This document shows, piece by piece, positions 11,878 to 50,317 of a stretch of 64,000 bases of DNA. Both the position numbers and the translations under genes were made by a program. Positions within the stretch are counted from its first letter, which is position 1. Every line of letters begins with the position of its first letter. Source of the DNA: an uncultured Clostridia bacterium (GTDB taxonomy: Bacteria; Acidobacteriota; Blastocatellia; UBA7656). A model generated the notes under the pieces. It was given only the letters and a program-made list of their open reading frames with translations, made no database searches and was not told where the DNA came from. The stretch lies in NCBI GenBank assembly GCA_964615905.1, contig CAZTUB010000005.1, forward strand, positions 56,123 to 120,122, in the 5' to 3' direction.

Positions 11878-11897
11878 AAGGGCGTGAAGTAGAAGAC

Positions 11898-29876: not shown

Positions 29877-29887
29877 GATGTAGTGTT

Positions 29888-33057: not shown

Positions 33058-34665
33058 TCAGTTCTTCTTCTTAGCTTCCTTCTTGATAGCGTCGCCGACA
33101 GCATCCTTGATCTTACCGAAGAGGCCTTTCTTCTTCTCCTTCTTCTCTTCTTTCTTCTCTTCTTTCTCAGGCTCTTTGGCTACGACTTTTGGCTCTTCTC
33201 TTGGTTGAGGCTTAGGCGGCGGCGCGGTGACAACGGGTTGTGGTTGAGCGGTAGCCGCTGGCGCGCTGCTCTCCGCAACCTTTTCCGCGCGACCGCCCCG
33301 TGTGCGGCTGGTCTTGCTTGCCTCGGTTGGGGAGGTGTCGGCGGGTGTCGAGCCCGTGTCGAGTTTTGGCGGATTTGTCGGGTCGGTGACCGCCTGCGCC
33401 GGAGCTTGCGACTGCGCGGGCGCAGGGGCGGGCGCGCTTGCCGAGGGCGGCGTAAGGTTTTGAGGCTGCGCGGGCTGACTGCCGCCTCCCATAAAGGCGA
33501 GCGGCACTCCGAGCAGTGCGAGGATTGCCACGCCCGCTCCCGCGTAATGTTTCCAATTCAGCTTGCTCAGAAGAGAAGCCTGCGCGGCCTGACCGGCAAT
33601 GTCATGCGAGGGGGTCCTTATGGTCGGCACGTTTGAAAAATCCATGTAAGGCGCTTGCGCGCCAGTGCCCGCGCCGAGGCGTGTCTCCTTGGGCTGAGCA
33701 TCATTAAAGTGAGCGGGAGCGGACGGCTGGTAATTGCCCCCCGCGCCCGGAGCGAGCCGCGTCTCCTTCAAGCCGCCGGCCGCTGGCGGCTCTCCGAGTC
33801 GTGTCGCGGGCGCTACGTAACCGGGGTGCGCTCGTTCCGCGGGGGTCGCGCCCGCGTTTAGCGCGCCGAGCAGCACCGCGCGAAACTCGCCCGCGCTCTG
33901 AAAGCGTGCGGTCGGTCGTTTTGCTAGCGACCGCATAATGGCTTCTTCGATGACCGGAGGGATCGACGCAGTAAATCTTGTCGGCGGCGGCGGCGCATCC
34001 TCGATCTGTGATTTCATCAGATCGAATTCGCTCGGACTGCTAAACGGCACGCGACCGGTGAGCATCTCGTAGAGCAATATGCCTAGCGAATAGATGTCGG
34101 AACTCGCGCCTGTCTCTTCGCCGCGAACCTGCTCAGGAGACATGTACTCGATGGTGCCGACGATGTTGCCCTGCCGCGTCATTCGCGCGGTCCCAAGCAC
34201 GCGGGCGATTCCAAAGTCCATCACCTTGATGGTCCCTGTCTCGGTCAGCATCATGTTGGCGGGCTTTACGTCCCGGTGAATTATGCCGAGCTTGTGCGCG
34301 TGGTCGATACCTTCGAGCGCCTGGCAGAAGAGCGTGACCGCGCGCTCCCACCCAATCGCGCCGTTTCTTCTTATCACGTCGTCGAGCGTCTGGCCGCGCA
34401 CGAATTCGAGCACCATGAAGAAGTCTTCGCCCTGGCGGAAGAAGCTGTGAAGCGTTGCGATATTGGGATGGTTGAGCTTGGCCAAGGTGACGGCCTCGGA
34501 GCGGAAGCGCTCGACGACCTGGGGCTGGCTGGCAAGCTCAGGCCGCAGCATCTTTATCGCCACCTCGCGTTCGAGCATGAGGTCTACGCCTTTGAATACG
34601 GCCCCCATCCCGCCTTCGCCTATCTTCTCCGTGATCTTATAACTTCCTACTACATTGCCGATCAT
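33058..34665 (-). CDS. Ser/Thr protein kinase with single TM and low-complexity P/A/Q-rich plus K/E-rich C-terminal tail
   Basis: Hanks kinase subdomains (GEGGMGAVFKG, AIKML, HRDVKPAN, DFGIA, SPEQ). TM segment AGAGVAILALLGVPLAF. C-terminal EKEEKKEEKKEKKKGLFGKIKDAVGDAIKKEAKKKN. Confidence 0.9.
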   Translation of the reverse strand: MIGNVVGSYKITEKIGEGGMGAVFKGVDLMLEREVAIKMLRPELASQPQVVERFRSEAVTLAKLNHPNIATLHSFFRQGEDFFMVLEFVRGQTLDDVIRRNGAIGWERAVTLFCQALEGIDHAHKLGIIHRDVKPANMMLTETGTIKVMDFGIARVLGTARMTRQGNIVGTIEYMSPEQVRGEETGASSDIYSLGILLYEMLTGRVPFSSPSEFDLMKSQIEDAPPPPTRFTASIPPVIEEAIMRSLAKRPTARFQSAGEFRAVLLGALNAGATPAERAHPGYVAPATRLGEPPAAGGLKETRLAPGAGGNYQPSAPAHFNDAQPKETRLGAGTGAQAPYMDFSNVPTIRTPSHDIAGQAAQASLLSKLNWKHYAGAGVAILALLGVPLAFMGGGSQPAQPQNLTPPSASAPAPAPAQSQAPAQAVTDPTNPPKLDTGSTPADTSPTEASKTSRTRGGRAEKVAESSAPAATAQPQPVVTAPPPKPQPREEPKVVAKEPEKEEKKEEKKEKKKGLFGKIKDAVGDAIKKEAKKKN

Positions 34666-34701: not shown

Positions 34702-35838
34702 CTAGTTGTAACTCTGGATCAAACTGATTATTAGGTTCGATTCCGCCTTCTTGCGTGTCGCGGGCGCGAAGTTATAAGTCTTTGACTTGTCCTTCGCCTT
34801 CTGTTGCTCCGGTTCTCTAAAGACCTTCAGATGAAAAGCGCCAAGCTCTGAGCCGACAAACCCGTTCAGCTTCGCCTCTTTTATCTTCGTATCTTCCGCT
34901 TCAAAAGTATGGTTGCCGTCTTTTGCCTTGAATGTCACGGCAGCCTTTGTGACAAAGAGCGAGCCCTCGCAGTAAGTCTTAAAGAAGCCGTCGTGATCGT
35001 GATAAACATAAAAGACCGCGGACCCGCCGCGATCAAGCGCGGCGCGCATGGACTGTTCGGCCGAAAAGATATCTTGATTGCCGTACAACTGCGCAAACCC
35101 CATCAATTGATACGCAGTCGGTCTTGCCGAGTCCATCCTGACCGCTTCTTGAAGCAGACGAATGGCGCGATGAGAGTCGCTTGCCTGCATCGCGGCGACC
35201 GACTGGTCTGTCAGATCATCATAATCGGGAGTGTTGGCCGAGGCAACTCTCGACGCAGAGCTTGACGGTGCGGTCGTAGCTTTTTCCGAGATCGCGCCGA
35301 GGAGCGAGCGGTTGCCGCCAGCGGCGGTGATCTCGCGTGCGATCTCAGGCGTCATAGAAAAACTGACGCCTCGCACTTCGACAAACTGCTCGACGCGCGC
35401 GACGGGGACGCCGCTTTGCAAGAGCGTGATGACCTCGTTCTTTCCGAGCGGCGGCCCGGCGGGCACTGCCGCCGAATTCCGCCCCGCGCTGTTCGAGCTG
35501 GCCGGGCGCGACGAGGTTGAAACCGGCGTCGCCGGGCGGTAATTGGCATGGATGGCAGCTATAAGCTCCGGCCGCGCGCCTGCTTGCTGGAACTCGGATT
35601 CGATTGAAGGGGTCATTTGAAAATCGACCCCGCGCTGCTCGATGGCCTGGACGACCTCCTGCGTGGACAGAGCGTTCAGGCGCACAACTTTCAAAAGCCG
35701 CTCCTTGTCATAAGGATTTTTCCGCGCCTGCATCTCGGCTGTTGCGAAACCGAATGAAGCGACTAATATCGCGGTCGCAAGGAATGTGACCGCGCGGGCG
35801 AGCCGGGCTTTTTTGTGGTCTTCAAACTCTCTTTTCAT
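34702..35838 (-). CDS. Hypothetical membrane-anchored (periplasm-facing) protein with two tandem ~55-aa repeats and a C-terminal unknown domain
   Basis: RBS GGAGA. N-terminal anchor AVTFLATAILVASFGFATA. Repeats LNALSTQEVVQAIEQRGVDFQMTPSIESEFQQAGARPELIAAI and LLQSGVPVARVEQFVEVRGVSFSMTPEIAREITAAGGNRSLLGAI. Located between two kinase genes on the same strand. Confidence 0.55.
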   Translation of the reverse strand: MKREFEDHKKARLARAVTFLATAILVASFGFATAEMQARKNPYDKERLLKVVRLNALSTQEVVQAIEQRGVDFQMTPSIESEFQQAGARPELIAAIHANYRPATPVSTSSRPASSNSAGRNSAAVPAGPPLGKNEVITLLQSGVPVARVEQFVEVRGVSFSMTPEIAREITAAGGNRSLLGAISEKATTAPSSSASRVASANTPDYDDLTDQSVAAMQASDSHRAIRLLQEAVRMDSARPTAYQLMGFAQLYGNQDIFSAEQSMRAALDRGGSAVFYVYHDHDGFFKTYCEGSLFVTKAAVTFKAKDGNHTFEAEDTKIKEAKLNGFVGSELGAFHLKVFREPEQQKAKDKSKTYNFAPATRKKAESNLIISLIQSYN

Positions 35839-35866: not shown

Positions 35867-37300
35867 TTACTGATCGAGCAGCCTCCTTGCCTCTTCGCGT
35901 TTTCGCGCTCGCTCGCGCGCCGCAGTGTCTGTTTCCTTGCGCGTAACCTTAGGCTGCTGCTTTGGCTGGTTTACGGCCTCGCGCGGACGGGCGATGTTGT
36001 CGGAAGGTACGTTGACCGCCTCGGCCGGTTGCACCTTGGTCTGGCCCGGAAGCGGCTCGGCCACGGGCGCGGGTGGGGCGGGCGTATCCGCCTGTTTTTG
36101 CGCGGGCGCTGCGGCAGCCGGTTGTATAATTGTGGCTGGCGCATCGACGGCTTCGCCTTTCTTTCCCCCCACAAGCGCGAACCCAAGCCCGATGACCGCG
36201 ACCAGAACGACCGCCGCCGCCGCATAATGCATCCAGTTGAGCTTTGATAAAGGCGAGCCTTGCGCGGACGGCTGAGCGTTGCCGTATTGAGCCGCGTTGT
36301 AATAAGCCGGGGCTGGCTGAGCGCCCGCAACGGAGCCGAGCCGCGTGGCAGGCGCTTCGTCCTGAGCGTTTGCGGCTCCGAGCCTCGTCTCTTTTAGCGC
36401 CGCAGGGTTTGTTGAAACGCCTTGGCCGAGCCTTGTCGGCGGAACGGCCGGGCGTCTCTCTTCAAACTGTTTGTCGACGGGGCTCGTGGCAAGGCTTTTT
36501 TGAAGCGCATCGCGAAACTCGCTCGCGGTCTGAAACCGCGCGGCAGGGTTCTTTGCGAGCGCGCGCATTATAGCGTCTTCGACCGCTTCGGGTATCTGCG
36601 GCGCGAACGATCTTGGCGGCGGCGGCGCTTCTTGAATCTGCGCCATCATCAAGCCGAACTCCGTGTCGCTCGCAAACGGCACGCGGCCCGTCACCATCTC
36701 GTAAAGCAGAATACCGGCCGAGTATATGTCTGACCTCGCATCGGACTCGTTCCCTTGGATCGCCTCGGGAGACATGTACTCGATGGTGCCGACGATATTG
36801 CCCTGCCGCGTCATCCGCGCGGAGCCGAGCATACGCGCGATGCCGAAATCCATCACCTTGATCGAGCCGTCCTCGCGCATCAACATTATGTTGGCGGGCT
36901 TGATGTCGCGATGGACGATGCCGAGCTTGTGGGCGCGGCCTATGCCTTCGAGCGCCTGGCAGAAGAGCGAGATCGCGTGGCCGCATTCCATAGCGCCGGT
37001 TCTGCGGACGAGGCTGTCGAGCGTCTCGCCCTCGACATACTCCATCACCATAAAGAAGTCTTCGCCCTGTCTTATAAAGCTGTAGAGAGTGGCGATGTTA
37101 GGGTGGTTGAGCTTGGCCAAGGTGACGGCCTCGGAGCGGAAGCGCTCGACGACCTGGGGCTGGCTGGCAAGCTCAGGCCGCAGCATCTTTATCGCCACCT
37201 CGCGTTCGAGCATGAGGTCTACGCCTTTGAATACGGCCCCCATCCCGCCTTCGCCTATCTTCTCCGTGATCTTATAACTTCCTACTACATTGCCGATCAT
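35867..37300 (-). CDS. Ser/Thr protein kinase with single TM and P/A/Q-rich extracytoplasmic tail
   Basis: Hanks kinase motifs. First 65 codons are nucleotide-identical to the kinase at 33058..34665. Its start overlaps the PP2C gene stop (ATGA overlap at 37297-37300). Confidence 0.9.
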   Translation of the reverse strand: MIGNVVGSYKITEKIGEGGMGAVFKGVDLMLEREVAIKMLRPELASQPQVVERFRSEAVTLAKLNHPNIATLYSFIRQGEDFFMVMEYVEGETLDSLVRRTGAMECGHAISLFCQALEGIGRAHKLGIVHRDIKPANIMLMREDGSIKVMDFGIARMLGSARMTRQGNIVGTIEYMSPEAIQGNESDARSDIYSAGILLYEMVTGRVPFASDTEFGLMMAQIQEAPPPPRSFAPQIPEAVEDAIMRALAKNPAARFQTASEFRDALQKSLATSPVDKQFEERRPAVPPTRLGQGVSTNPAALKETRLGAANAQDEAPATRLGSVAGAQPAPAYYNAAQYGNAQPSAQGSPLSKLNWMHYAAAAVVLVAVIGLGFALVGGKKGEAVDAPATIIQPAAAAPAQKQADTPAPPAPVAEPLPGQTKVQPAEAVNVPSDNIARPREAVNQPKQQPKVTRKETDTAARERARKREEARRLLDQ

Positions 37301-38166
37301 CTTAACCCCTCCACTTCACGGGTTTCAGGAACAGGTCGCTCATTTTCGGGCGCGAGGCTCAGGATGCCGACCGTTATGTTGTCGTGGCCGCCTCGCTCTT
37401 TCGCCACATTGACCAGATGCTCGCACGCCCGCTGCGGGTGATAATTCAAGACCGCATCTTTTAGCTCCGCGTCTTCTACGAGGTCGTACAACCCGTCGGA
37501 GCAGAGCAGAAAGCGGTCGCCCGTTTTGACAGGGAAGGGCTCTTCCCACGTAGCCACGTCGATGTCGGACTGCGTGCCCATGGCGCGCAGTATCACATTT
37601 TTGTCCGGGTGATACCGCGCCTGCTCCTGGGTGATCCAGCCGCGCTTGACCATCTCCATAACCGCCGAGTGGTCTTCGGTCATCACGTAAATCTCGCCCT
37701 CGCGCACGAGGTATATGCGGCTGTCGCCGACGTGCGCGGCTATCGCGGAGTTGTTGAGCAGCACGAGCGCCGTGCAGGTCGTCCCCATCCCGCTCAACTC
37801 CTCGTTGTCCTGAGAAGCGTTGTGAATAGCCTTGTTCGCTTCTCGAAATGCCCGCTTCAAAGCCTGTGTGGGGTCGTTGCCGTCCGAATAATAGATGTCG
37901 CTTACAATATCGACCGCCGTCGAGCTTGCCACCTCTCCAGCGGTGTGGCCGCCCATGCCGTCGGCCACGATAAAGAGCACCCCCTTGGTTGCGAGCGTAT
38001 GCGGGTCGTTGGGGTAGACGTATTTGCCTGAGTCTTCGTTTACCTCGCGCACGCAACCGACATCCGTCTTGAGACCCGAAATAATATCATATTCGGGCAA
38101 CAGGCTGCCGGTGGCTGCGTGCTGCCCGTCGTTGCCTGTCTTGTGTCTTTTCAGTAGGTTGAACAT
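37297..38166 (-). CDS. PP2C-family Ser/Thr protein phosphatase (Stp1/PrpC-like)
   Basis: PP2C motifs DGMGGHTAGEVAS, VGDSRIYL, DGLYD, GGHDNITV. Confidence 0.9.
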   Translation of the reverse strand: MFNLLKRHKTGNDGQHAATGSLLPEYDIISGLKTDVGCVREVNEDSGKYVYPNDPHTLATKGVLFIVADGMGGHTAGEVASSTAVDIVSDIYYSDGNDPTQALKRAFREANKAIHNASQDNEELSGMGTTCTALVLLNNSAIAAHVGDSRIYLVREGEIYVMTEDHSAVMEMVKRGWITQEQARYHPDKNVILRAMGTQSDIDVATWEEPFPVKTGDRFLLCSDGLYDLVEDAELKDAVLNYHPQRACEHLVNVAKERGGHDNITVGILSLAPENERPVPETREVEGLR

Positions 38167-38253: not shown

Positions 38254-39534
38254 TTACTTGCTGCCGGTCGTTTTATCAAGGTTGAAGGTATAGACTTTAC
38301 GGTTGTCTGTGACTGAAAAATCTACCTTCTTATCGACGAACCCCTCGCTTTTGAGCGTGAAGTTGATCTGCTCTCCTTGCGCAGCCTCAAACTTGTAGGG
38401 CGTGCTGCCGACCTTCTGGCCGTTGCGATAAACTTCTGCGCGCCCTTCGGCCACGTCTATCGTAAGCGATTTTATCTGCGCGCCCGGCTGGGCTTTATTC
38501 GAAGACCGGTTCTGAGGCGCAATCTGCTGCGTGGCCGGGACGGTCTGCTCGCCGTCTCCGCCCGCGCCGGTTATAAAGTAAAGGCCGCCCGCTACGGCCA
38601 GGACGAGCGCCGCCGCGCCGCCCGCCATCAGCGCTCGCGGGTTGTTGAGAGGCCCCGGCAATGACGGCCCCTTTGCCGCGAGTCCCGACGGGCCGCCGGG
38701 TTGAGGCGCTGCCATCCCTGCCCGCCCGACATCTCTCAACAGGTCGACTGCCGACTGGTATCTTTCCGAGGCGTTCTTTCTCAGGCACCGCGAGATTATA
38801 TTCTCGATCTCGCGCGGCGTCGAAGGGATGATCGCCGAAGCGCGCACGAAATCCACTCGCGTGACCTTCTCGTAAAGCTCGCCTATCGTGTTCGCTTCGA
38901 AAGGCAGGTAGCCCGTCACCATCTCGTAAAGCAGCACGCCCAGCGCCCAGATGTCCGAGCGCGCGTCGGCGTACCCGCCTTTGAGCTGTTCCGGCGACAG
39001 GTATTGGAGCGTGCCGATAAAGCCTCCGGCCTGCGTAAGCGCGGGCGACGATCCAGACTTGGCAATGCCGAAGTCGAGCATCTTTACCTGGCCCGCCGTG
39101 CTGATCTTTACGTTGCTCGATTTTATGTCCCTGTGAACAATGCCCTGGCTGTGTGTGTAATTTATGGCGTCGACTATAGAATGATAGATAGAAAGCGAGG
39201 TCGATAGCGGCATGACGCCTCGCCCTCTGATAAGCTCGTCGAGTGTCTGCCCCTCGACGTATTCCATGATTATGCAGGGGTGTCCCTGGAATTCCAGAAA
39301 GTCGTAGAGCGTGGCTATGTTGGGGTGCTGAAGGCTTGCCTGAATCCGCGCTTCGTTATAGAACCGCTCGATAAATTCGGGAGTGCGGACGCTCTGGCTC
39401 AGGACTTTGACTGCGACTATGCGCCCGATCTTCAAGTGTACGGCGCGATAAACCTCGCCCATGCCGCCCGCGCCCAACTGGTCTACGAGCCGGTACTCGC
39501 CGATGACCGAATTTATAAGTGAAGCTCCGTTCAT
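38254..39534 (-). CDS. Ser/Thr protein kinase with TM and C-terminal PEGA-like extracytoplasmic domain
   Basis: Kinase motifs (GAGGMGEVYRAV, HRDIKSSN, DFGIA). TM segment LMAGGAALVLAVAGGLYFI. C-terminal RAEVYRNGQKVGSTPYKFE resembles a PEGA domain. ATG at 39534; the track uses a TTG at 39543. Confidence 0.85.
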   Translation of the reverse strand: MNGASLINSVIGEYRLVDQLGAGGMGEVYRAVHLKIGRIVAVKVLSQSVRTPEFIERFYNEARIQASLQHPNIATLYDFLEFQGHPCIIMEYVEGQTLDELIRGRGVMPLSTSLSIYHSIVDAINYTHSQGIVHRDIKSSNVKISTAGQVKMLDFGIAKSGSSPALTQAGGFIGTLQYLSPEQLKGGYADARSDIWALGVLLYEMVTGYLPFEANTIGELYEKVTRVDFVRASAIIPSTPREIENIISRCLRKNASERYQSAVDLLRDVGRAGMAAPQPGGPSGLAAKGPSLPGPLNNPRALMAGGAAALVLAVAGGLYFITGAGGDGEQTVPATQQIAPQNRSSNKAQPGAQIKSLTIDVAEGRAEVYRNGQKVGSTPYKFEAAQGEQINFTLKSEGFVDKKVDFSVTDNRKVYTFNLDKTTGSK

Positions 39535-39544
39535 ATGAACCAAA

Positions 39545-39599: not shown

Positions 39600-41307
39600 T
39601 TACCTGGATGAGCTGACGCTCATAAGCTCTTTGCCGTAGCGTATGGGTACCGCGAAAGTTATCATCGCATCCGAGCGGCTGCTGGCAAAGAATATGCCCG
39701 TCACGCGCCCGCGATCATCAAAGACAGGCCCGCCCGAATTGCCCGACCCCGTCGAGTTGATCGTCAACTGGTACGCGTCGCCAAAGGCGCTGTAGGCCGA
39801 ATCTTTGCCCGCGCTCTCCGAACTGCGAATGATGCGCCCGATATTGCCGACGCTCACGGTCGGGTCGGGCACGATCTTGACCTTCGATTCGCGGTTAAAG
39901 ACATCCTGCGATTTGGTGACGCCGTACACGGGAGGGCTGACCGCAGGATAACCCAGCACGATTGCCGCGTCGCCCGGCTTGATCGCGTCGTAGTTGTCAT
40001 AAAGCTCAACCTTTGATACCGCTTCAGGAACGTCCACCTTCATCATCGCTACGTCGTGGCGGTCGCTCACGCGAGCCAGCTTGGCAGGGATGCGCAGGTC
40101 GTTTTTGGCAAAGGTTACGTTGAGATAATCGTTGCGGCCTTCAAACCCGCCCTGTAGCTTCTGGCCCGCTTGCTTGGTCTCGGAAGGGACCCAGTCTTGC
40201 GGCGAGCGGATGAGAATGGGGTTGCCCTCATTGTCCAAAGCGATCTGACCGCCCTGCACGACGATTCCGGGCGTGGCGTCCTGCGGGAACTGGTAGCTCG
40301 TGCGCCAGGTGGCGGCGACGTGACGGTTTGTGAGGATAAAGCCGTCGCTTGTGACGGTAAAGCCGGAGCCCGTGTGCTCGCCGCCTATGGGTCGCCCGCC
40401 ACGGCTATCCGTAGTCAGGTAAGGCTCGATAGTGTCTTGCGACACCATGACGTAAGCGGCCACGGATTGCCGCCCGTCCGGTACGATCTGCCGACCCTTG
40501 AAGTTATTCGGTATATACATCTGATAGACCTGGCCGCCCGTCGGGGTGTAGATAAGCTTCCAGCCGCACTCGATGTAGACAGCCGAGTTCGTATAGTTTT
40601 TTACGATGTCTGCGGGCGACATAGGCCCGGCTGCTGCCAGCGCCTCAAGCCTCCCTGATGTCTCGCTTGCCAGCTGCTTGCTCGAAGAATATTGCATGTA
40701 CCACAGGACCGCGCCGACCGCCGCGATCACGACCAGCAGCGCGCCCGCGCCGATAATCATGAAATTGCGCGAATCGCTCTTGCTCTGCGTTATCATGCGC
40801 TCGACGGTCGCTTTGCCCGGCCCCTGCTGATAATGCTGCTGCGGGTAGCCCTGCGACGAGCCGTAGCCTTGCGGCACAGCGGTTTGAGGCACTGTCCCGC
40901 CAACGCGAGTCGCGGGCGGGCCGCCCGCCGTCGGGTTGTCGCCCACGCGCGTAGGTTTCACGGCGTTTGCCGGTCGCGGTTCGAGATCGAACTGGAACTC
41001 AGGACCGCCCGCGCCGAACTGCACCATGTCGCCCGGCCCGACCTGTACGGTGCCCACAATCCGCTGCTTGTTGACGAACGTGCCGTTGCGGCTGTTGAGG
41101 TCTGTCACGTTAAACCGCGTCGGGTCGGCCGGGTCCTGCGATATTCGCGCGTGTTGACGCCCGACCAGATCGTCTCTTTCTGGATCGTATTTGACGGTCG
41201 CGGACGTATCCCGCCCGATAATGAGTTCTTTAAAATGTGTGAGCGGAAACTCTTCGACCTGTCCGGCCTTCGACCCGCTAATATGCCTGAGAACTATACG
41301 CTCCATG
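39600..41307 (-). CDS. FHA domain / TM / trypsin-like (S1) serine protease fusion protein
   Basis: N-terminal FHA (LIIGRDTSATVKYDPERDDLVGRQHARI....TDLNSRNGTFVN). TM segment FMIIGAGALLVVIAAVGAVLWYM. C-terminal chymotrypsin-fold motifs GSGFTVTSDGFILTNRHV and GNSGGPVFD. Start at ATG 41307 preceded by GGAGG. Confidence 0.8.
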
Positions 41308-41618
41308 GTAGCCTCCATTTGAGCCCGTTGTTATTCGGGTGATTCTTGGACGAAAGCAAAGGGTAATGCGTGCCTCTCGCGACTAAATCAAAGTTTAAGT
41401 TCAGCCACATACTATCAAGATTCTGACCGCTACTTACCGCACCCTTTCGTTCGTGTTTAGTTGTTCTGGGTTTGTCGCACAGGTAATCTTTAGTCCCTTG
41501 CGGGGGTTCGTGAAAATTACCTCACAAAACGGCGTGATTTTATGCCTGTTCCTTTTCTATGGCAAGGCCAAAATGGCACTGAATGAAACATAAAAGATAA
41601 CGCCGCCGGGTTATCGAG

Positions 41619-42548
41619 TTAAGCGCGCGTGCTGGCATCCCTCGGCGGAGGCTGAACCGGTTGCGCGTTTTCATCATCGTGTGTCATAAGCCCTGTCGTC
41701 CCTTCGGTCACGGACGGCGGCTGCGGCAGGGGAACTTCTCTCGCAAAAGGATCGGTTCGCGCACTGAAAGCTTCGGGAACGGGCGGCAAGACCTGCTGTC
41801 GAGCCCCGGCAATCTGAGGCTGCGCGTTTGTCTCTTTAGTATTGATGGCCCGCTTCAAACGGCCCAGGCCGAAAAATGTCCCCGCGAGCCCAAGCGCGGC
41901 AAAGACGCCGAACAGTATCATCAGCACTGTGAAAACTTTTATCCCTTCGTCCCCTTTTAATCCGAAGACCAGGAACGCAAAAAATGCGAAAAGAAAGGCG
42001 ATGCCGGAAAAGATCGCGCTCATCAAAAAGTTTGACTGTCCCGCTCGCGTCTCTGCCGCTATGCGCAACACTTCAAGCTCGGCGATGTCCGCAGAGATTG
42101 GCGCGCCGCACCGGCGGCAGAATTTGGAATCGTCCGTCGTGCCGACGCCGCAGCCAGAGCAGACCGTAGGCGTCGCGCGCGAGGTCGCGAGCGCGGCAAT
42201 AGCCTTGGCCTCGCGCGACAGGATGCGCTTGTCGCCCTTCGTAAGCATCGGGTGCTTTACGACGTAATCGAAGGTGGCTCGCGTGGCGAACGCGCTGTCG
42301 GCTTTGAGCCGGACAGTGAGCGTCGCCGGGTAATCCATCACGTCGGAAGATGCCATGGCCTCGGCCCATCCTCGCGCCCCGCGCCGCCCAAGCACAACGG
42401 GCTCCTCCGCGATGATCGTGTAGCCGCACCTCTCCATCGCCGCTGAAATACTCGCTCGCACGGTTTCGATATTACCGGCGACGATGTGCGTGACATAGTG
42501 CCCGCTCGCGCCGCTGCTTTCCATTCCGAGCAGGTATTCTGTTGACAT
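41619..42548 (-). CDS. Hypothetical protein with zinc-ribbon (CxxC...CxxC) followed by two TM helices and a Pro-rich tail
   Basis: CSGCGVGTTDDSKFCRRCGAP zinc ribbon. Hydrophobic segments FLMSAIFSGIAFLFAFFAFLVF and VFTVLMILFGVFAALGLAGTFF. 300 bp upstream of the FHA-protease gene. Confidence 0.5.
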   Translation of the reverse strand: MSTEYLLGMESSGASGHYVTHIVAGNIETVRASISAAMERCGYTIIAEEPVVLGRRGARGWAEAMASSDVMDYPATLTVRLKADSAFATRATFDYVVKHPMLTKGDKRILSREAKAIAALATSRATPTVCSGCGVGTTDDSKFCRRCGAPISADIAELEVLRIAAETRAGQSNFLMSAIFSGIAFLFAFFAFLVFGLKGDEGIKVFTVLMILFGVFAALGLAGTFFGLGRLKRAINTKETNAQPQIAGARQQVLPPVPEAFSARTDPFAREVPLPQPPSVTEGTTGLMTHDDENAQPVQPPPRDASTRA

Positions 42549-42657: not shown

Positions 42658-42687
42658 TTGCCTACGGGCCGCGCCAGTCCATATAAT
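42658..42687 (+). promoter_or_regulatory. Candidate sigma70 promoter for rlmN (TTGCCT, 18-nt spacer, TATAAT); TATAAT ends 6 nt before the ATG, suggesting a leaderless or near-leaderless transcript
   Basis: TTGCCT at 42658-42663. Perfect TATAAT at 42682-42687. rlmN ATG at 42694. Confidence 0.35.
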
Positions 42688-42693
42688 TTTTCT

Positions 42694-43764
42694 ATGAGTC
42701 TTAGCACGCCCGACCCGAAGCCTGAGCTGCTCGGTATGACCGCCCAGGAGCTGACAGAGTTCATGCTGTCGCTTGGCGAAAAGCCTTACCGCGCCCGCCA
42801 GCTCTACCAGTCCATCTACCACCGCCGCATAACCGACTTTGACCGGATGACCGATTTGCCGAAGACGCTCAGGCGGATACTGGCCGACCGCGCGCATATC
42901 ACTGATACGCGCGTGCGAGACGTCTTTCTTTCGCTTGACGGCACAAGGCGATTTCTTTTGACGCTTGGCGACGGTCGCGAAGTCGAGTCGGTCTTCATGC
43001 CCGAATCGCGCCGCGACACCATCTGCATATCGAGCCAGGTCGGGTGCCCGCTCGCCTGTGATTTCTGTATGACGGGCGTATTGGGCTTGAAGCGAAACAT
43101 GACCGCGAGCGAGATAGTCTCGCAGGTCGTCGTCGTGCTGAACGAGGTTTACGGCCAGGGCGAGCAGACGCCGCACCGCACCAACATCGTCATGATGGGC
43201 ATGGGCGAGCCTTTGTTGAACTACGATAACGCGATCAAGTCCGTAAGGATTTTTGCCGATCAAGAAGGGCTCTCCATAGCCGCGCGGTATGTGACCCTTT
43301 CGACCGCCGGGATAGTTCCGCGCATATACGATCTTGCGAAAGAAGAGGTGCGCCCGCAGCTTGCCATCTCGCTCACGGCGGCAAATGACGAATTACGCGA
43401 CAGGCTCTTCCCGATCAATCGTAAGTACCCGCTCGCGGAATTGATCGAAGCCTGCCGCCTTTATCCGCTCAAGGAGCGCGAGCGTTTGACCTTCGAGTAC
43501 GTGATGCTCGCGGGCGTAAACGACAGCCCGCGTGACGCTCGCGAGCTTGTCAGATTGCTTTCGAGGGTGAAGGCAAAGGTTAACCTTATACCGCATAATC
43601 CCGCGCCTGAGCTTCCGTACCTGGCATCTTCAATGGAGAGCATAATCGCTTTTCAAAAGGTGCTGACCGACGCGGCGCTGCCTTCATTCATTCGCCGCCC
43701 GCGCGGGCAGGATATATCTGCGGCCTGCGGCCAGCTCGCCGCACGCCACCAGGCGACAGCCTAG
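42694..43764 (+). CDS. rlmN: 23S rRNA m2A2503 / tRNA m2A37 methyltransferase RlmN (radical SAM)
   Basis: LGEKPYRARQLYQSIY N-terminal signature. Radical-SAM CPLACDFCMTG. Conserved GMGEPLLN. Length and collinearity match RlmN. Start at ATG 42694 chosen by alignment logic. Confidence 0.9.
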   Translation: MSLSTPDPKPELLGMTAQELTEFMLSLGEKPYRARQLYQSIYHRRITDFDRMTDLPKTLRRILADRAHITDTRVRDVFLSLDGTRRFLLTLGDGREVESVFMPESRRDTICISSQVGCPLACDFCMTGVLGLKRNMTASEIVSQVVVVLNEVYGQGEQTPHRTNIVMMGMGEPLLNYDNAIKSVRIFADQEGLSIAARYVTLSTAGIVPRIYDLAKEEVRPQLAISLTAANDELRDRLFPINRKYPLAELIEACRLYPLKERERLTFEYVMLAGVNDSPRDARELVRLLSRVKAKVNLIPHNPAPELPYLASSMESIIAFQKVLTDAALPSFIRRPRGQDISAACGQLAARHQATA

Positions 43765-43817: not shown

Positions 43818-45347
43818 GTGACAGATCGTTTTAGCGCCGCCGACGACGTTATCGGCGCGAAGCTTGAGCTTGAGCTTTTCTTCCTTGGCGGCGCGTTCGA
43901 CCTGTACGAAGACCGCGCCTTTGTCGCTACAGTCGAGCCCGGTCATACGTCCGTAGAAATATCTTACGGAAAGCTCATACTGTCGTGCTGGGGCGAAGCG
44001 TGGTCGAGATCGTGGCGCGTAGTCGCGCACCGGTCGACCGCGAGCGGTTTTAGTCTCGAATGCGCAAGACAGTTGAACCGCGCGCACTCCGTCATATCGC
44101 TCGAAAGAGCCTTCGGACGAGACCCGGCTGAAAGGGCGCGCTTTGTCACTCGCGATGAGTTCCCGGCGTGGCTCGCAAGGATGATCGAGGCTCGATTCAC
44201 AGGTTGCCGCGTCGAGCCTGCCAAAACCCCGCGCGAAGCCGCTTACAACTTTTCCGCCCTCCACACACGGCTATTGATGAGAAATCGCGGCTCGCACGCC
44301 CTCTGCCTCGGCGTCCGAAGCCAGGAGCCGCAAACGAGCGTTGACGCGCTGTTGGGGCAGGGGATTATGTGGCTCGACGCGCACGCCGGTTCGCGCCCGT
44401 TCATCAACCGCTTGATGCTCTTTGTTCCGTGGGGGCGTGCGCTCAATCTCGCCACACGGCTCGCGCTTATCGACAGAGTTCCGGCCGAGGTTTCACTCTA
44501 CGAATACGACGAGAAGCGCGAGTCGATAAGCTCTGTTGCCCCGGTCGATCAAGGCGATCTTTCCGACAATTTGAAGCGCGCTTCACGCGGGGCGCTCTGG
44601 CCGAAAGAGCCTCGGCTTGACCGGGAAGCCGCATCGCTCGTCGAGCGAATAGTTCAACTCGCGCCCTCGCATATCGACACCGTATTTAGAGAAGGTCGCG
44701 TAAAGATGATGATTCGCGGCCTTGAGTTTGCCGAACTGTCTGTGAAGCAAAGGCGAGGGTGGTTCATGGGCCAAGGCGGGAACGTGAGCCTGAGCCAGGC
44801 CACCTGGCCCGACCTGGAAAGGTTGGTTCGGAAGATAACGCGCGTGCGGAGCGGAAATTCCGATTGCCGCGACCACGAATTTTACCGCGCGCAAGCCGAG
44901 CGGTGGCTTGAATCGCTCCTCAAAAAGGATATAACCGTGCTCGATGCGCGGCTCGACCCGCTACACGTATACTCGCAGGTCCCTGCGTACAGAGGCGAGA
45001 AGCGAGCCTACATAGACCTGCTCGCTGTGACAGGTGAAGGCAGGCTCGTAGTGATTGAGTTAAAAGTTTCCGAAGACGCGGAACTGCTCTTTCAAGGGCT
45101 CGACTACTGGGCGCGCGTCGAGTGGCATCGCAGGCGCGGCGACTTCGAGCGGCGCGGCTATTTCAAAGGGGTGAGTCTCCTAGACCTGCCGCCGTTGCTC
45201 TACCTTGTCGCGCCGTTGTTTCGTTTCCACGCCGCGACTCGTCTGCTCGCGCGGACGATAAGCGACCGCGTCACGGTCTGTCGCATAGGGATAAACAGCG
45301 ACTGGCGCGCAGCCGTACGCGTGCTTTTGAAGGAGCAGTTGAGCTGA
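43818..45347 (+). CDS. Hypothetical protein (509 aa) with C-terminal PD-(D/E)xK nuclease-like motif
   Basis: GTG start after AGAGG. C-terminal ...KRAYIDLLAVTGEGRLVVIELKVSEDAELLFQGLDYW matches the D...ExK pattern of the restriction-endonuclease-like fold. N-terminal ~380 aa unrecognised. Confidence 0.55.
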   Translation: MTDRFSAADDVIGAKLELELFFLGGAFDLYEDRAFVATVEPGHTSVEISYGKLILSCWGEAWSRSWRVVAHRSTASGFSLECARQLNRAHSVISLERAFGRDPAERARFVTRDEFPAWLARMIEARFTGCRVEPAKTPREAAYNFSALHTRLLMRNRGSHALCLGVRSQEPQTSVDALLGQGIMWLDAHAGSRPFINRLMLFVPWGRALNLATRLALIDRVPAEVSLYEYDEKRESISSVAPVDQGDLSDNLKRASRGALWPKEPRLDREAASLVERIVQLAPSHIDTVFREGRVKMMIRGLEFAELSVKQRRGWFMGQGGNVSLSQATWPDLERLVRKITRVRSGNSDCRDHEFYRAQAERWLESLLKKDITVLDARLDPLHVYSQVPAYRGEKRAYIDLLAVTGEGRLVVIELKVSEDAELLFQGLDYWARVEWHRRRGDFERRGYFKGVSLLDLPPLLYLVAPLFRFHAATRLLARTISDRVTVCRIGINSDWRAAVRVLLKEQLS

Positions 45348-46195: not shown

Positions 46196-47452
46196 CTATT
46201 CATACCTGAGGCACTCGATGGGGTCGAGGCGCGAAGCCTTGCGCGCGGGCCAGACTCCGAAGATAAGGCCGACCGCTATTGAGACCGTGAGCCCCGCGAT
46301 GACCGCCCACACGGGGATTGATGAGGGAAGGGCCGGCAAGAGCAGGCCGAGCAACTGGCTTATGATGACCGCCAGCACCACGCCCGCGAAACCGCCGATG
46401 AAGGTCAGCGTCATGGCTTCGATCAAGAACTGGCGGACTATATCGCCCTTGCGAGCGCCTATGGCCTTTCGTATGCCTATCTCTTTCGTGCGCTCCGTGA
46501 CGGAGACGAGCATGATGTTCATCACGCCTATGCCGCCCACCAGAAGGCCGACGCCCGATATAGCGATTGCGATCAACCCTACGGCTGCGGTGATAGAGTC
46601 GAACTGTTCGATGAAGCGGTCGGCGGTGTTGAGGTCGAAATTGTTCGGCTCGTTGTACTTTACCCCGCGCTGGCGGCGGAGAATGTCTTCCACCTGATCG
46701 AGCGCGACCTTCAGCTGGCCCGAGTGCGCGCGTATGAGCATCATCATCCACTCGCTTTCCGGCGAAAGCTTTCGCGCGGTTCGATAAGGGATGAAGATCG
46801 CGTTGTCTTCTTCGTTTTCGCCGAACAGCCCTGTCTTTCTCTTCTCCAGCACGCCAATGACATCGAAAGGCTTGCCCGCAAGATATACCTGCTCGCCTAT
46901 GATCTGGCCACGGTGCGGAAAGAGGGCCTCGGCCACGTTTATGCCCAGCACCATGACGTCGCGGCGGTGCTGGTCGTCGATCTCTGTGACAAAGCGGCCT
47001 TCGGTCAGGCTCACGTTCGCAATCTCTGCGTAACTGGCCGAGACGCCCTGTAGATCGCCGCGCTTATAGGTAACGCCTTTGTATGTGACGGTCTTATCGA
47101 AATTCCAGCTGATGAAGGCTATCGAGGCCACGTCGTCTACGGCGGTCGCGTTCTGGCGTATAGCTTCAGCGTCTTCGGGCGTGAGCGGCGGGCGCGCCCA
47201 CTCTTTTCGGTCGCGGTTGCCGACCGAAATCCCTGTCGAGAGGTGAAATGCCCAGATATTGTTTGTGCCGTACTCCTCTATGTACTGTATCAGGTTGCTG
47301 CGCAGACCCGTGAGGATTGAAGAGATCGCGATTACCGTCATGACCCCGATAACGATGCCGAGCATAGTCAGGAAGCTGCGGAACTTGTTCGCTCGAAGGT
47401 TATCGAACGCCATCAGCACGGTCTCTTTTGGAAGTATTGATTTGATCTTCAC
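46196..47452 (-). CDS. ABC transporter permease, MacB/FtsX type (no fused ATPase)
   Basis: N-terminal TM, large periplasmic domain, C-terminal FtsX 3-TM bundle (...IGIRKAIGARKGDIVRQFLIEAM...). Confidence 0.85.
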   Translation of the reverse strand: MKIKSILPKETVLMAFDNLRANKFRSFLTMLGIVIGVMTVIAISSILTGLRSNLIQYIEEYGTNNIWAFHLSTGISVGNRDRKEWARPPLTPEDAEAIRQNATAVDDVASIAFISWNFDKTVTYKGVTYKRGDLQGVSASYAEIANVSLTEGRFVTEIDDQHRRDVMVLGINVAEALFPHRGQIIGEQVYLAGKPFDVIGVLEKRKTGLFGENEEDNAIFIPYRTARKLSPESEWMMMLIRAHSGQLKVALDQVEDILRRQRGVKYNEPNNFDLNTADRFIEQFDSITAAVGLIAIAISGVGLLVGGIGVMNIMLVSVTERTKEIGIRKAIGARKGDIVRQFLIEAMTLTFIGGFAGVVLAVIISQLLGLLLPALPSSIPVWAVIAGLTVSIAVGLIFGVWPARKASRLDPIECLRYE

Positions 47453-47474: not shown

Positions 47475-48719
47475 TTAGCTCTTGGTCAACGCGACAATAG
47501 GGTCGAGCCGCGCAGCCTTAAACGCGGGGTATATCCCCGCGACGACTCCGATGACGCTGGAAAAGGCCAGCGACAGAAATACGTAAATTATTGTGATCGT
47601 CATCGGTATGGGCGTCGTCGCGCTTATGACCCAAGAGAGCGCCGAAGCCAGCAGAATCCCGATTGCGCCGCCGAGCGCGCACAGGATCGAAGACTCGATC
47701 AAAAACTGCACGAGTATCTGCCGCTTTGTGGCCCCGAGCGCCTTGCGCAGCCCTATCTCGAACGTTCGCTCGGTGACCGATACGAGCATTATGTTCATCA
47801 CAACTATCCCGCCTACGAGCAGAGAGATCAGCGTGATGGGAGTGACGACCATCGCTATGCTGCCGGTGAACTCGTCCACCTGATTGTTAAGCTCTTGAAC
47901 ATTCACAAGCCCGAACGTGTCCTTCTCGTTGCCTCTTAGCTTGTGGCGGTTCCGCATCGCGGTGCGGGCCTCTTCAATCGTGGCCAGAAACTGCTCGCGG
48001 GTGTTCGCCTTGCCGTGGAGTTGTATGCTCTGGCGGCGGCCAAACATCCGGCCGTAGGTGGTAAGCGGGATGTATATGTGATTGTCGAGCGAGTTGCCGA
48101 ACATCGAGCCGCGCTTCTCCTCGACGCCCACGATTCGCAGCGGGATGTCGTTGACTTTTAACTCGCGGCCTATGGGGTCGACGCCGGGGAAGAACTTCTC
48201 TTTTATGTCGTAGCCGATCACGCAAACGAGCGAGGGGTTATCCACCTCGTGCGGCAGGATGAAGCGGCCTTCGACTATTGTCTTGTCTTCGATCTTGTCC
48301 ATGTTGGCGGTGACGCCGTTTACGCCTGTCGAGAAGATCTCCTGCCCGTCTTGCTTCAGATCGACGCGGGTGCTGGCCTGCGCCCCGACCTCCGAGCAGT
48401 TCGCGCAATGCTCGCGGAGCCATTCGAAGTCTTCGAGGTCGAGCCGCTTGTTGCGGCGGTCCATCTCTTTCCACTCTTCTTCGGTCACGTTCCCTGAGCT
48501 TGCCATGCGAGCGATCATGAAGTGGTTGACGCCAAGCACCTTCGACACGCGCTCGATGACGTAAGAGTTAAGCCCGCCGATGGCGGCGCCCACCACGACG
48601 ACCGACGCAACGCCAATGATGACGCCTAGCAGCGTGAGGAACGCGCGCAGCTTGTGAGCAAAGATAGATTGCAGGGCAATCTTGGCCGCGTCTGTGTAGA
48701 AAGAGTAAAAACTTCTCAT
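47475..48719 (-). CDS. ABC transporter permease, MacB/FtsX type (paralog of 46196..47452)
   Basis: Same architecture (MacB_PCD plus FtsX; ...[22 protein letters not shown]...). Confidence 0.85.
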
Positions 48720-48819: not shown

Positions 48820-48912
48820 CGTGAACCGTGAACCGTAAACCGTGACAAGCCAGAGTAGAGCGGTAGACCGGGCATCTCTCCTCTTGTCACGGTTTACGGT
48901 TCACGGTTCACG
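48820..48912. repeat. Long hairpin element, copy C: perfect 30-bp inverted arms (same arm sequence as copy B) with a 33-nt loop; right arm overlaps the 3' end of the CapK-like CDS
   Basis: Arms 48820-48849 and 48883-48912 are exact reverse complements and identical to the arms of copy B. Confidence 0.85.
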
Positions 48913-50270
48913 ATCTTCGTAATCTCTTGTATGACGAGGCGGAACTTGCCGCTTGCTACGAGCGGTATCTCTTCGGGAAAGCTCAGCGTGATCTCCATGG
49001 TGTCGCCCATCTTTTCAGATAGTGCGGCACGTATACGGTGGCTATCCCGGTCCGTGTAGCCGGACCTTCGTCTGATCCGAAGCTCAACCTTGCCTTTTTC
49101 ACGCTGATAAAACTGTATCTGGTGTACGTTGTCAAAGATGTCCGAGTGCATATTCAATGCCGTCACCGAGATCAGGTTATCGAGCCTGCCCACAAGCACC
49201 TCTTGGTGCCAGCGGCCGCGCGTCTCTCTTAGCAATCTATAATTGCGCCCGCAGGCGCAGGACGACGGGCCGACGACTGCCCAATCGTCCGTGCGGTAGC
49301 GAATGAGCGGCATGGCAAAGTTGTCGAGCGACGTGCCGACAAGCTCGCCCATCTCGCCTTCTTCGGTCGCGTCCGCGCCTTCGGCGGTGAGCACTTCGAC
49401 CACGCCGTACTCAGGGAAGATGTGATAGTTATTGCTCGCCTCGCATTCGCCCGCGAGGATGGTGGTCTCGCTGTGGCCGTACCAGGAAAATAGCCGCGCG
49501 CCGTAGAAAGATTCTATAAACTCGCGCTGGCCGGGATAGAGGTTCTCGGATGACGCGAGTATGGCTTTGAACCGGGGCGGCTCCTGACCGAGCGCTTGCA
49601 GGTGTCGCGCAAAGTCTATGACCGCCGACGGGTACGAGTGCAGAAACGGCAGCCGTTTCTCTCGCATGACGCGAGCGTAAGCGGCCACGTTTTCAGGGGT
49701 CATATGAAAGTTGGAGAAGACATAGGATCGCTCCGAAACCTGATACTCCCAGTGGCGGCGGTTCTTGACCGCCCAGCCCCTCAGCGCAGCCCGCAGGTCT
49801 CGCGGGCGAAACCCCACGCGCGCCCACTGCGTGAACATGAAAGCTCGCTCGCGCCCGCCCGCGTGCTTGAGGTTGTAGACTCCGAGAGGCGTGCCCATCG
49901 TGCCGCCGGTCGTGAAGTAGAGCCTGTCGCGCGGCTTTATATTCTCGGCAAGAAGATCGCGCAGGTTTTCGCGCACGGTCTCTTTGTCCAGAAGCGGCAG
50001 TACGCGCAGGTCTGCGACCGTTCGCACGCCTTCGGGGTCGAACCCGCGCTCTCGAAAGAGCCTGCGATAATAAGGCACATTCTTCGCAGCGTGACATAAC
50101 ATGCGGCGGAGCTTTTTCAGCTGATAATCCGCGAGCCTGTCTTCGCTCCAATGCTCGGACTGTTTTAGCAGGCTTAGTGTGGGCGCATACTGCGGCCCGT
50201 AGCATATAGGATCGGGCAGGCGGTAGTAGACCGGCTTTAATAGGGATTTAATCGAGTCTTTCGCGCCCAT
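48894..50270 (-). CDS. Adenylate-forming enzyme of the phenylacetate-CoA ligase / coenzyme F390 synthetase (CapK-like) family
   Basis: Start at ATG 50270 (MGAKDSIK...). PaaK/CapK-like blocks (LRRMLCHAAKNVPYYRRLF, YFTTGGTMGTPLG, ILASSENLYPGQREFIE). The last five codons (VNREP) and the stop lie within the repeat arm. Confidence 0.75.
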   Translation of the reverse strand: MGAKDSIKSLLKPVYYRLPDPICYGPQYAPTLSLLKQSEHWSEDRLADYQLKKLRRMLCHAAKNVPYYRRLFRERGFDPEGVRTVADLRVLPLLDKETVRENLRDLLAENIKPRDRLYFTTGGTMGTPLGVYNLKHAGGRERAFMFTQWARVGFRPRDLRAALRGWAVKNRRHWEYQVSERSYVFSNFHMTPENVAAYARVMREKRLPFLHSYPSAVIDFARHLQALGQEPPRFKAILASSENLYPGQREFIESFYGARLFSWYGHSETTILAGECEASNNYHIFPEYGVVEVLTAEGADATEEGEMGELVGTSLDNFAMPLIRYRTDDWAVVGPSSCACGRNYRLLRETRGRWHQEVLVGRLDNLISVTALNMHSDIFDNVHQIQFYQREKGKVELRIRRRSGYTDRDSHRIRAALSEKMGDTMEITLSFPEEIPLVASGKFRLVIQEITKIVNREP

Positions 50271-50317
50271 CGAAAGCCTTATAACGCGCCGCGAGCCTGT
50301 CGAGCGCCCGAAACCTT

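Follow-up and report, generated by a model that had tools for sequence, protein, structure and literature searches.

The stretch analysed here (the window, 64,000 nucleotides of contig CAZTUB010000005.1 from an uncultured bacterium of the Blastocatellia) encodes a membrane protein in which an FHA domain, a linker of about 70 residues, one transmembrane (TM) helix and a serine protease of the HtrA fold (S1C), lacking a PDZ domain, follow each other from the amino- to the carboxy-terminus. It represents a large family of FHA-TM-S1C proteases, automatically annotated yet experimentally unstudied. The gene heads a cassette with Hanks-type Ser/Thr kinases and a PP2C-type phosphatase, of which four genes recur in the same order in at least four phyla. 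This operon arrangement with kinases and a phosphatase suggests that phosphorylation inside the cell controls the cleavage of envelope proteins.

The gene is contained in a single uninterrupted open reading frame (ORF) of 572 codons on the minus strand (39600..41318); residues are numbered from the start of this ORF at 41318 throughout. The likely start codon is the ATG at 41306, 12 nt further downstream, because GGAGG is found 5 nt upstream of it, an identical database protein (P0001) has 568 residues, and the homologs all begin with MERIV. The original prediction, made by a first reading of the sequence, had located an FHA-TM-trypsin-like protease fusion at 39600-41307; the region was correct, but the end is off by one base and the strand is the minus strand. 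The two domains it named are both found by Pfam with scores above the cut-off: FHA (PF00498) at residues 33-102 with 54.1 bits (cut-off 20.7), and Trypsin_2 (PF13365, clan PA) at residues 317-542 with 57.8 bits (cut-off 27.6).

The fusion is genuine and no artefact of assembly or frameshift, because hundreds of full-length homologs share the architecture. The original prediction had proposed to look for the fusion in other genomes; an exhaustive phmmer search of 1.84 billion representatives of 50%-identity clusters returned 455 proteins at E ≤ 1e-30. Most of the best 150 of these 455 align end to end (query residues 5-569, approximately), down to 37% identity; the top 120 matches are mostly full length, nearly all containing both FHA and Trypsin_2. 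By source name, the members come from Blastocatellia, Pyrinomonadaceae, Chloracidobacterium, Vicinamibacterales, Bryobacteraceae, Gemmatimonadales, Bacteroidota, Fodinibius/Aliifodinibius (Balneolales) and Accumulibacter, and they carry automated labels such as "FHA domain-containing protein", "S1-C subfamily serine protease" and "trypsin-like peptidase domain-containing protein". A scan of contigs with the single protein, using strict peptide patterns, gave seven loci; the breadth of the family was established from the representative search, cluster look-ups and a search seeded with Fodinibius. Conservation counts given below refer to 132 full-length representatives of 50%-identity clusters, aligned by fast progressive MAFFT, and the columns relied upon sit in well-anchored motifs; the counts of Thr-Arg (TR) dipeptides refer to 131 linkers.

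The AlphaFold2 (AF2) model of residues 210-572, calculated with 73 homologs, has a mean predicted local distance difference test score (pLDDT) of 86 and a predicted template modelling score of 0.83. Foldseek comparison of this model with the PDB retrieved HtrA1, DegP, AlgW and DegS (E about 1e-13), with a target-normalised TM-score of about 0.73 for isolated protease domains. Among solved proteins, HtrA1, HhoA, MucD/DegP and HtrA2 are closest in sequence, and PepD and DegS are also among the neighbours by sequence or structure. The His-Asp-Ser triad is present in the canonical order, and GNSGG occupies residues 526-530, with Gly529 in all 132 representatives and GNSGGPVF aligned with GNSGGPLV of HtrA1. 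With HtrA proteases as neighbours in both sequence and fold and the triad kept in 127-130 of the 132 representatives, the domain is very probably an active S1C/HtrA-fold protease, in agreement with the original prediction of an extracytoplasmic chymotrypsin-fold enzyme with a GNSGGP motif and a triad that should be conserved.

Compared to HtrA1, the protein has about 60 additional residues before the first barrel, about 60 between His and Asp and about 27 between Asp and Ser; the His-Asp insertion carries the invariant Trp376-Val377-Pro378. Pfam finds no PDZ domain, the chain ending 44 residues past Ser528, where the AF2 model closes with one short helix. Scores against the NCBIfam models for TIGR02037 (48.5, cut-off 416), HhoA/HhoB/HtrA (46.6, cut-off 450), DegS (17.3, cut-off 423) and MarP (NF033740; 43.7, cut-off 250) are also low. 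The lack of a PDZ domain, the early chain end after the nucleophile and NCBIfam scores roughly ten-fold below the cut-offs all place the protease outside the curated Do/DegP/DegS/HtrA and MarP families.

The hydropathy scan contains exactly one hydrophobic segment, at residues 186-209 (Kyte-Doolittle maximum 2.71), and no signal-like segment at the amino-terminus; one TM-like segment is likewise present in 129 of the 132 relatives. Lys and Arg residues are more numerous in the 15 residues before the helix than in the 15 after it in 103 relatives, equal in 22 and fewer in seven (means 3.8 and 2.3), and AF2 predicts a continuous helix across the membrane segment (model residues 180-225). The kinase domains of the partner kinases are amino-terminal, preceding their TM segments, and an FHA domain can meet phosphothreonine only where kinase domains and ATP are, i.e. 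in the cytoplasm. These indicators (hydropathy, the charge distribution under the positive-inside rule, the absence of a signal peptide, the AF2 helix and this biological logic) are indirect but agree on a bitopic inner-membrane protein, with the FHA domain in the cytoplasm and the protease in the periplasm. The single helix of the original prediction is thus found, and the charge bias puts the two domains on opposite sides of the membrane, as it had proposed.

The linker between the FHA domain and the membrane differs in length and composition among homologs, apart from short motifs, and is mostly rich in Pro, Ala, Ser and Thr. The Gln/Gly/Pro/Tyr-rich low complexity described in the original prediction is a fair account of the present ortholog, to which this stretch (residues 142-167, approximately) is peculiar, but it overlooked the conserved Thr-Arg motifs. 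Thr123 is Thr in 127 of the 132 representatives and Ser in one, and is followed by Arg124 in 121; the second candidate phospho-acceptor, Thr137, is Thr in 124, with Arg138 being Arg in 102. A third threonine, Thr171, belongs to a juxtamembrane motif of the family form (V/I)-G-(K/R)-x-T-V-E-R-(M/L)-(I/L/V), the counts being 122 for Gly168, 124 for Thr171, 104 for Glu173 and 107 for Arg174. Serine replaces Thr123, Thr137 or Thr171 in at most two sequences, which fits the selectivity of FHA domains for phosphothreonine over phosphoserine.

An alignment-free count gives the same picture: the 131 linkers contain 249 TR dipeptides, against 54 ± 6 (maximum 72) in shuffled linkers, a 4.6-fold enrichment. 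Exactly two are present in 99 of the linkers, the median spacing is 13 residues, and the consensus is [K/R/P]-[A/P]-T-R-[E/V/L/I]-[A/V/G]. Two variants of about 700 residues, P0137 and P0273 (Accumulibacter, locus L010, 7001..9103, 700 residues), have tandem FHA domains ahead of the TM helix and the protease. Each of their FHA domains is followed by a TR pair, suggesting that the FHA domain and its two TR motifs duplicate as a module.

On the minus strand, the protease gene is followed by those for a Ser/Thr kinase (STK1), the PP2C phosphatase, a second kinase (STK2), a protein we call X and a third kinase (STK3). The kinase and phosphatase genes are on the same strand and follow immediately, as originally described. 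The PP2C stop codon overlaps the STK2 start, and the remaining intergenic gaps measure 28-87 nt. Upstream of the protease gene there is a gap of 312 nt containing one -35/-10-like site (41565..41537), a consensus-level match only; terminator-like sites in the scan were no more frequent than in shuffled sequence.

Synteny was compared over 12 loci, the window and 11 related ones from Blastocatellia, Bryobacteraceae, Chloracidobacterium, Gemmatimonadales, a Bacteroidota metagenome-assembled genome (MAG) and Accumulibacter. The protease is paired with kinases and/or PP2C in all 12. The order protease, PEGA-carrying kinase, PP2C, kinase is found in L001, L003, L004, L005, L007, L008, L010 (Accumulibacter) and L012 (the Bacteroidota MAG); it is kept in frameshifted form in L006, cut after STK1 in L002, and lacks STK1 in the Chloracidobacterium validum locus L011. 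STK1 is accordingly syntenic in ten of the 11 related loci (intact in nine, frameshifted in the low-quality MAG L006). The conserved core is therefore the protease, the PEGA kinase, PP2C and a second Hanks kinase, to which X is added in Acidobacteriota and a third kinase, after X, in Blastocatellia; the STK3 position is likewise filled in L001 and L008.

The motifs of the protease linker recur in its partners. STK2 and STK3 each have three juxtamembrane copies, such as PPTRLG, KETRLG and PATRLG, and STK2 orthologs with one to three copies are present in Blastocatellia, Bryobacteraceae, Gemmatimonadales, the Bacteroidota MAG, Accumulibacter and a MAG labelled "Solirubrobacteraceae". Among all ORFs of at least 250 residues in the window (20,764 residues), eight of the 11 matches to the pattern TR[LVIM][GA] come from three linkers, those of the protease, of STK2 and of STK3.

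The FHA region is modelled as a beta-sandwich with pLDDT values of about 90 over residues 1-110, and Gly35, Arg36, His56, Ser76, Asn78, Gly79 and Asn83 are conserved in at least 96% of the representatives. The best FHA-type match in NCBIfam is the FhaB/FipA model NF049868 (E 2e-12, score 47.4, cut-off 125), matched by the FHA domain alone. The original prediction took the domain for a phosphothreonine reader. The residues that canonically touch the phosphopeptide are the Arg of GR, the Ser and His of SxxH, and the Asn and Ser of the S-x-N-G-T loop; of the pocket, Arg36, His56, Ser76, Asn78 and Asn83 are present, but the SxxH Ser, by which FHA domains studied so far make contact with the phosphate, is replaced by Gly53 (41160..41162, minus strand). 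In the alignment, Vps64 and GarA have the Ser at this position; the solved FHA structures closest in sequence include that of self-bound GarA, PDB 2kfu ("Rv1827 pThr 22"). Position 53 is Ser in 85 and Gly in 44 of the representatives, the Gly form predominating among close Blastocatellia relatives.

This replacement would be in keeping with an FHA domain that acts as a phosphate-independent structural or scaffolding module, in the manner of the FHA-like domains of the type III secretion proteins YscD and MxiG, on a constitutive, membrane-tethered quality-control protease merely co-transcribed with kinases; a weak match of the protein to Pfam Yop-YscD_cpl (23.7 bits, below the cut-off of 33.2) points the same way. 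The study of the amino-terminal domain of MxiG reportedly leaves phosphopeptide binding in doubt. That domain has an FHA fold (PMC3162421). We nevertheless consider such an anchor very unlikely in the present family: the five other pocket residues are essentially invariant, the Ser itself is retained in two thirds of the family, and three near-invariant threonines in an otherwise drifting linker are hard to explain without phospho-signalling, as is the 12-of-12 synteny with kinases and/or PP2C across phyla.

Table 1. Positions in the window of the protease gene, the parts of its product and the cassette genes downstream of it (TR, Thr-Arg; residue numbers from the 572-codon ORF; coordinates of the catalytic His, Asp and GNSGGP rows verified).
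Feature	Position	Strand	Evidence or remarks
FHA-TM-HtrA-like protease gene, 568 residues	39600..41306	-	ORF, GGAGG, length of P0001, MERIV starts of homologs
Cytoplasmic FHA domain, residues 5-112 (Pfam core 33-102)	40983..41306	-	Pfam FHA PF00498, E 2e-14
Cytoplasmic linker, residues 113-185, predicted disordered	40764..40982	-	AF2 pLDDT about 30-35
First TR motif KPTRVG, residues 121-126; candidate phospho-acceptor and FHA ligand Thr123	40941..40958	-	Conservation
Second TR motif PATRVG, residues 135-140; candidate phospho-acceptor Thr137	40899..40916	-	Conservation
Juxtamembrane motif PGKATVERMI, residues 167-176; near-invariant Thr171	40791..40820	-	Conservation
Single TM helix, residues 186-209, amino-terminus inside	40692..40763	-	Hydropathy, charge bias, AF2 helix
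Periplasmic region, residues 210-572: post-TM helix, then PDZ-less HtrA/S1C-fold serine protease with family-specific insertions	39603..40691	-	
Catalytic His333 (TNRHV)	40320..40322	-	His in 127/132; aligns with HtrA1 TNAHV
Catalytic Asp422 (RHDVAMMKV)	40053..40055	-	Asp in 130/132; aligns with HtrA1 KADIALIKI
GNSGGP motif, nucleophile Ser528 (39735..39737)	39726..39743	-	Ser in 129/132; aligns with HtrA1 GNSGGP
STK1: Hanks-type Ser/Thr kinase, one TM helix, extracytoplasmic PEGA-like domain	38254..39543	-	Pkinase E 1e-58
PP2C-type Ser/Thr phosphatase	37297..38166	-	PP2C E 3e-20; syntenic in L001, L003-L008, L010-L012
STK2: Hanks kinase, three juxtamembrane xTRLG motifs (Thr289, Thr305, Thr319), one TM helix, basic carboxy-terminal tail ending LLDQ	35867..37300	-	Pkinase E 2e-57
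Protein X, 378 residues, amino-terminal signal or anchor	34702..35838	-	No Pfam family
STK3: STK2 paralog, three juxtamembrane TR motifs; closes the extended Blastocatellia cassette	33058..34665	-	Pkinase E 7e-57

Taken together, these features can be arranged into a tentative model, which we judge to fall somewhat short of probable: the kinases would phosphorylate the threonines of the TR motifs, the FHA domain would bind them, and the resulting assembly would gate periplasmic proteolysis. The cassette kinases would act on the near-invariant TR threonines, those of the protease linker as well as those in the juxtamembrane segments of STK2 and STK3. FHA domains would then bind the phosphothreonine sites in trans, tethering protease protomers to each other, to active kinases or to both. 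HtrA-fold proteases act as oligomers; a cytoplasmic assembly could therefore set the oligomeric state or the position of the periplasmic domains, and with it envelope proteolysis. The PP2C phosphatase would reset the system.

Several observations weigh against this model. Gly53, found in 44 of the 132 representatives, could weaken phosphothreonine binding, and the full-length AF2 model, in which the linker is of low confidence, predicts no TR motif docked on the FHA domain. The TR motifs could instead be docking sites for the kinases or the phosphatase, or structural elements. No juxtamembrane TR motif is found in the C. validum kinase, nor any in the STK1 orthologs examined, except for one PTRN site in L003. 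A lone TM helix offers no obvious allosteric route besides oligomerisation. Finally, the direction of signalling, inside-out or outside-in, is not set by the sequence.

If the signal runs outwards, the FHA domain, by reading phosphorylated TR motifs, would bring about a multivalent assembly of the single-pass protein that switches on a PDZ-less periplasmic protease of the HtrA type; as a specific proposal this is doubtful. The FHA domain and phospho-linker would take over the role of the PDZ sensor of DegS and DegP, and the candidate substrates would be the ectodomains of the kinases themselves and the exported protein X.

The signal could also be imagined to run inwards, with the protease being an input of the pathway rather than its output: the periplasmic domain would oligomerise on unfolded or specific envelope proteins, as DegP does, and cluster FHA domains and TR motifs, so that kinases are scaffolded and activated. 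No extracytoplasmic sensor domain is recognisable in STK2 or STK3, which have low-complexity tails instead and would need such an input. FhaA and FhaB are FHA proteins that modulate kinase signalling in the FhaA/FhaB-PstP-PknA/PknB arrangement, which the present FHA-kinase-PP2C co-operon resembles, the NCBIfam match to FhaB being below threshold. STK1, however, has an extracytoplasmic PEGA-like domain of its own (20.6 bits, just below the cut-off of 20.8), and the strict triad and oxyanion motif favour proteolysis over mere binding, though sensing and cleaving are compatible. With the direction left unset, as stated above, we regard a sensor of this kind as unlikely.

Protein X and the tail of STK2 bring in a further scheme, in which the FHA domain docks onto phosphorylated TR sites of STK2 and STK3 and the protease cleaves the PEGA domain, the LLDQ tail or protein X, ending or propagating the signal. 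Protein X follows STK2 in all five Acidobacteriota cassettes that extend past STK2 (the window, L001, L007, L008 and L011) and is not found elsewhere. Its homologs are at 12556..13656 in L001 and 13860..15008 in L008 (50-59% identity), at 11099..12127 in C. validum L011 (about 37%) and at 12113..12874 in L007 (amino-terminal domain only); this exported protein is a candidate periplasmic partner or substrate. Its co-conservation, the STK2 tail ending in (A/L)LDQ in five Acidobacteriota loci and the juxtamembrane TR motifs of STK2 and STK3 orthologs from several phyla would all fit cleavage of partners. No cleavage site or substrate is identifiable, however; the Gemmatimonadales, Bacteroidota and Accumulibacter cassettes lack both X and the LLDQ tail, and the TR motifs are better conserved in the protease linker than in the kinases, which points to self-association or regulation in cis. 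Feedback by shedding thus seems quite unlikely.

Further features of these partners were observed. The extracytoplasmic tail of STK2 (35867..35940, minus strand) ends in a basic helix, (K/R)-rich and terminating in (A/L)LDQ-COOH, in the window, L006, L007, L008 and L011, the ending in L001 being ALDN. The first 180 nt or so of the STK2 and STK3 coding sequences are 100% identical; beyond them the two genes agree at about 75% of positions (79% over 790 nt), a pattern resembling a recent gene-conversion tract at the 5' ends. Two repeats, each some 45 residues long (…GLSTQE.V..I..RGV.F..TP…), are found in the amino-terminal part of protein X, and its carboxy-terminal domain is conserved. The only cassette locus with an actinobacterial label, L006 (CBAAAA010000397.1, from the Solirubrobacteraceae-labelled MAG), is a 4.9-kb contig with Ns and a frameshifted PEGA kinase, and its label may be a binning error.

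A role in anti-phage defence, with the kinases as infection sensors and the protease as effector, was also considered. The three kinases score highly against the PADLOC PD-T4-6 kinase models, and for the protease domain there is a weak match (E 1e-9) to the protease portion of RT-Protease_XI. These matches cover generic Hanks-kinase and trypsin-fold domains. The best ones of STK2 and STK3 (PDLC04061) are nearly full length, the others mostly span the kinase domain, and the models have no curated cut-off. PP2C and X have no PADLOC match. Unlike patchy defence islands, the same gene order recurs in at least four phyla beside housekeeping genes such as those for RlmN, LptE and LeuRS, and a periplasmic protease is no obvious abortive-infection device. 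We therefore rejected this reading as highly improbable, the kinase matches being a generic domain similarity in a housekeeping context. Involvement in a site-1-protease/anti-sigma pathway was considered and set aside, since the C. validum locus is the sole one with an extracytoplasmic function (ECF) sigma gene close to the cassette and none is evident close to that of the window.

The genes around the cassette include an RlmN-type radical-SAM rRNA methyltransferase (42658..43764, plus strand) and a 948-residue GH15 glucodextranase-like protein with a carboxy-terminal glycogen-binding module (29774..32620, plus strand), housekeeping and metabolic neighbours that argue against a mobile or defence-island context. 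Directly upstream, on the strand of the protease, 41619..42548 encodes a protein of 309 residues with a zinc-ribbon motif (sub-threshold in Pfam) and carboxy-terminal hydrophobic segments; it was rejected as a cassette member because it is not conserved in related loci. Tandem MacB-type ATP-binding cassette (ABC) permease genes with MacB_PCD and FtsX domains are found at 46196..47452 and 47475..48719 (both minus strand). Two further proteins, of 509 residues (43818..45347, plus strand) and 543 residues (48894..50525, minus strand), have no Pfam match at E ≤ 0.001.

Among known systems, the closest functional precedents are Rv1747/PknF and GarA. Rv1747, a Mycobacterium tuberculosis ABC transporter, is regulated through phosphorylation by PknF (PMC3138270). 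Rv1747 resembles the present protein in being membrane-bound, in having cytoplasmic FHA domains joined by a disordered linker with phospho-acceptor threonines (candidates in our case) and in sharing its operon with a Hanks kinase; the modular unit of FHA domain and two TR motifs, duplicated in the two-FHA variants, is a further parallel. Its output is an ABC exporter rather than a periplasmic protease, and the motif of the present family (xTR-hydrophobic) also differs. GarA/OdhI ranks with the solved FHA structures closest in sequence (E about 1e-3); Hanks kinases phosphorylate the conserved Thr motif of its flexible extension, and the phosphorylated motif is held by the FHA domain of the same protein. 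GarA is, however, a small soluble metabolic regulator with an amino-terminal ETTS motif, whereas here the protein is membrane-anchored, has its motifs carboxy-terminal to the FHA domain and carries Gly53.

FhaB/FipA (Rv0019c) also has an FHA domain on a single-pass membrane protein and is encoded with PP2C and two Hanks kinases (fhaA-fhaB-pstP-...-pknA-pknB). Its TM helix precedes the FHA domain, it has no protease, and its gene is part of a cluster for cell-wall synthesis (rodA/pbpA) with no counterpart here; the present protein also scores well below the FhaB cut-off. MarP (Rv3671c) has four TM helices and no FHA domain, while the family protein has a single helix. The anchored HtrA proteases DegS of Escherichia coli and PepD/Rv0983 and HtrA/Rv1223 of M. 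tuberculosis differ from the family protease, which ends 44 residues after the catalytic Ser; in place of their PDZ domain the family protein has a cytoplasmic FHA domain and a motif-bearing linker, as well as large insertions. The protein is thus best placed with both the anchored HtrA proteases and the FHA effectors of Hanks kinases, as a variant of each.

A 2008 survey of prokaryotic serine proteases by Tripathi and Sowdhamini lists one FHA-FHA-Trypsin protein, NP_811686.1 of Bacteroides thetaiotaomicron, as a table entry, with no TM, topology, operon or functional analysis (PMC2605481). This entry has the same domain combination as the two-FHA variants P0137 and P0273. Full-text literature searches found no functional study of an FHA-protease fusion, only this catalogue entry. 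Both domains are found by automated annotation and their combination has been catalogued since 2008, so the novelty lies in the system-level reading and not in the fusion itself. What is added here is the identity of the protease as a PDZ-less HtrA, the Thr-Arg and juxtamembrane motifs, the FHA-plus-two-TR module, the presence of the same motifs in the partner kinases and the four-gene cassette shared across phyla.

Classical HtrA proteases such as DegS and DegP are activated on their periplasmic side, where peptides attach to the PDZ domains. The present family swaps the PDZ domain for a cytoplasmic FHA domain, predicted to read phosphothreonine. To our knowledge, few outputs of bacterial Hanks-type kinases have been described, and most of these are cytoplasmic. 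Should the proposed coupling be true, cytoplasmic Ser/Thr phosphorylation would control proteolysis in the envelope, or envelope damage would feed into Ser/Thr kinase signalling. The conserved Thr-Arg motifs provide concrete, mutable sites, and a finished genome is available for at least one named species that has a family member, Chloracidobacterium validum. If the signal does run from the inside out, the family would give bacteria a kinase-controlled means to remodel or clip the proteins of their envelope.

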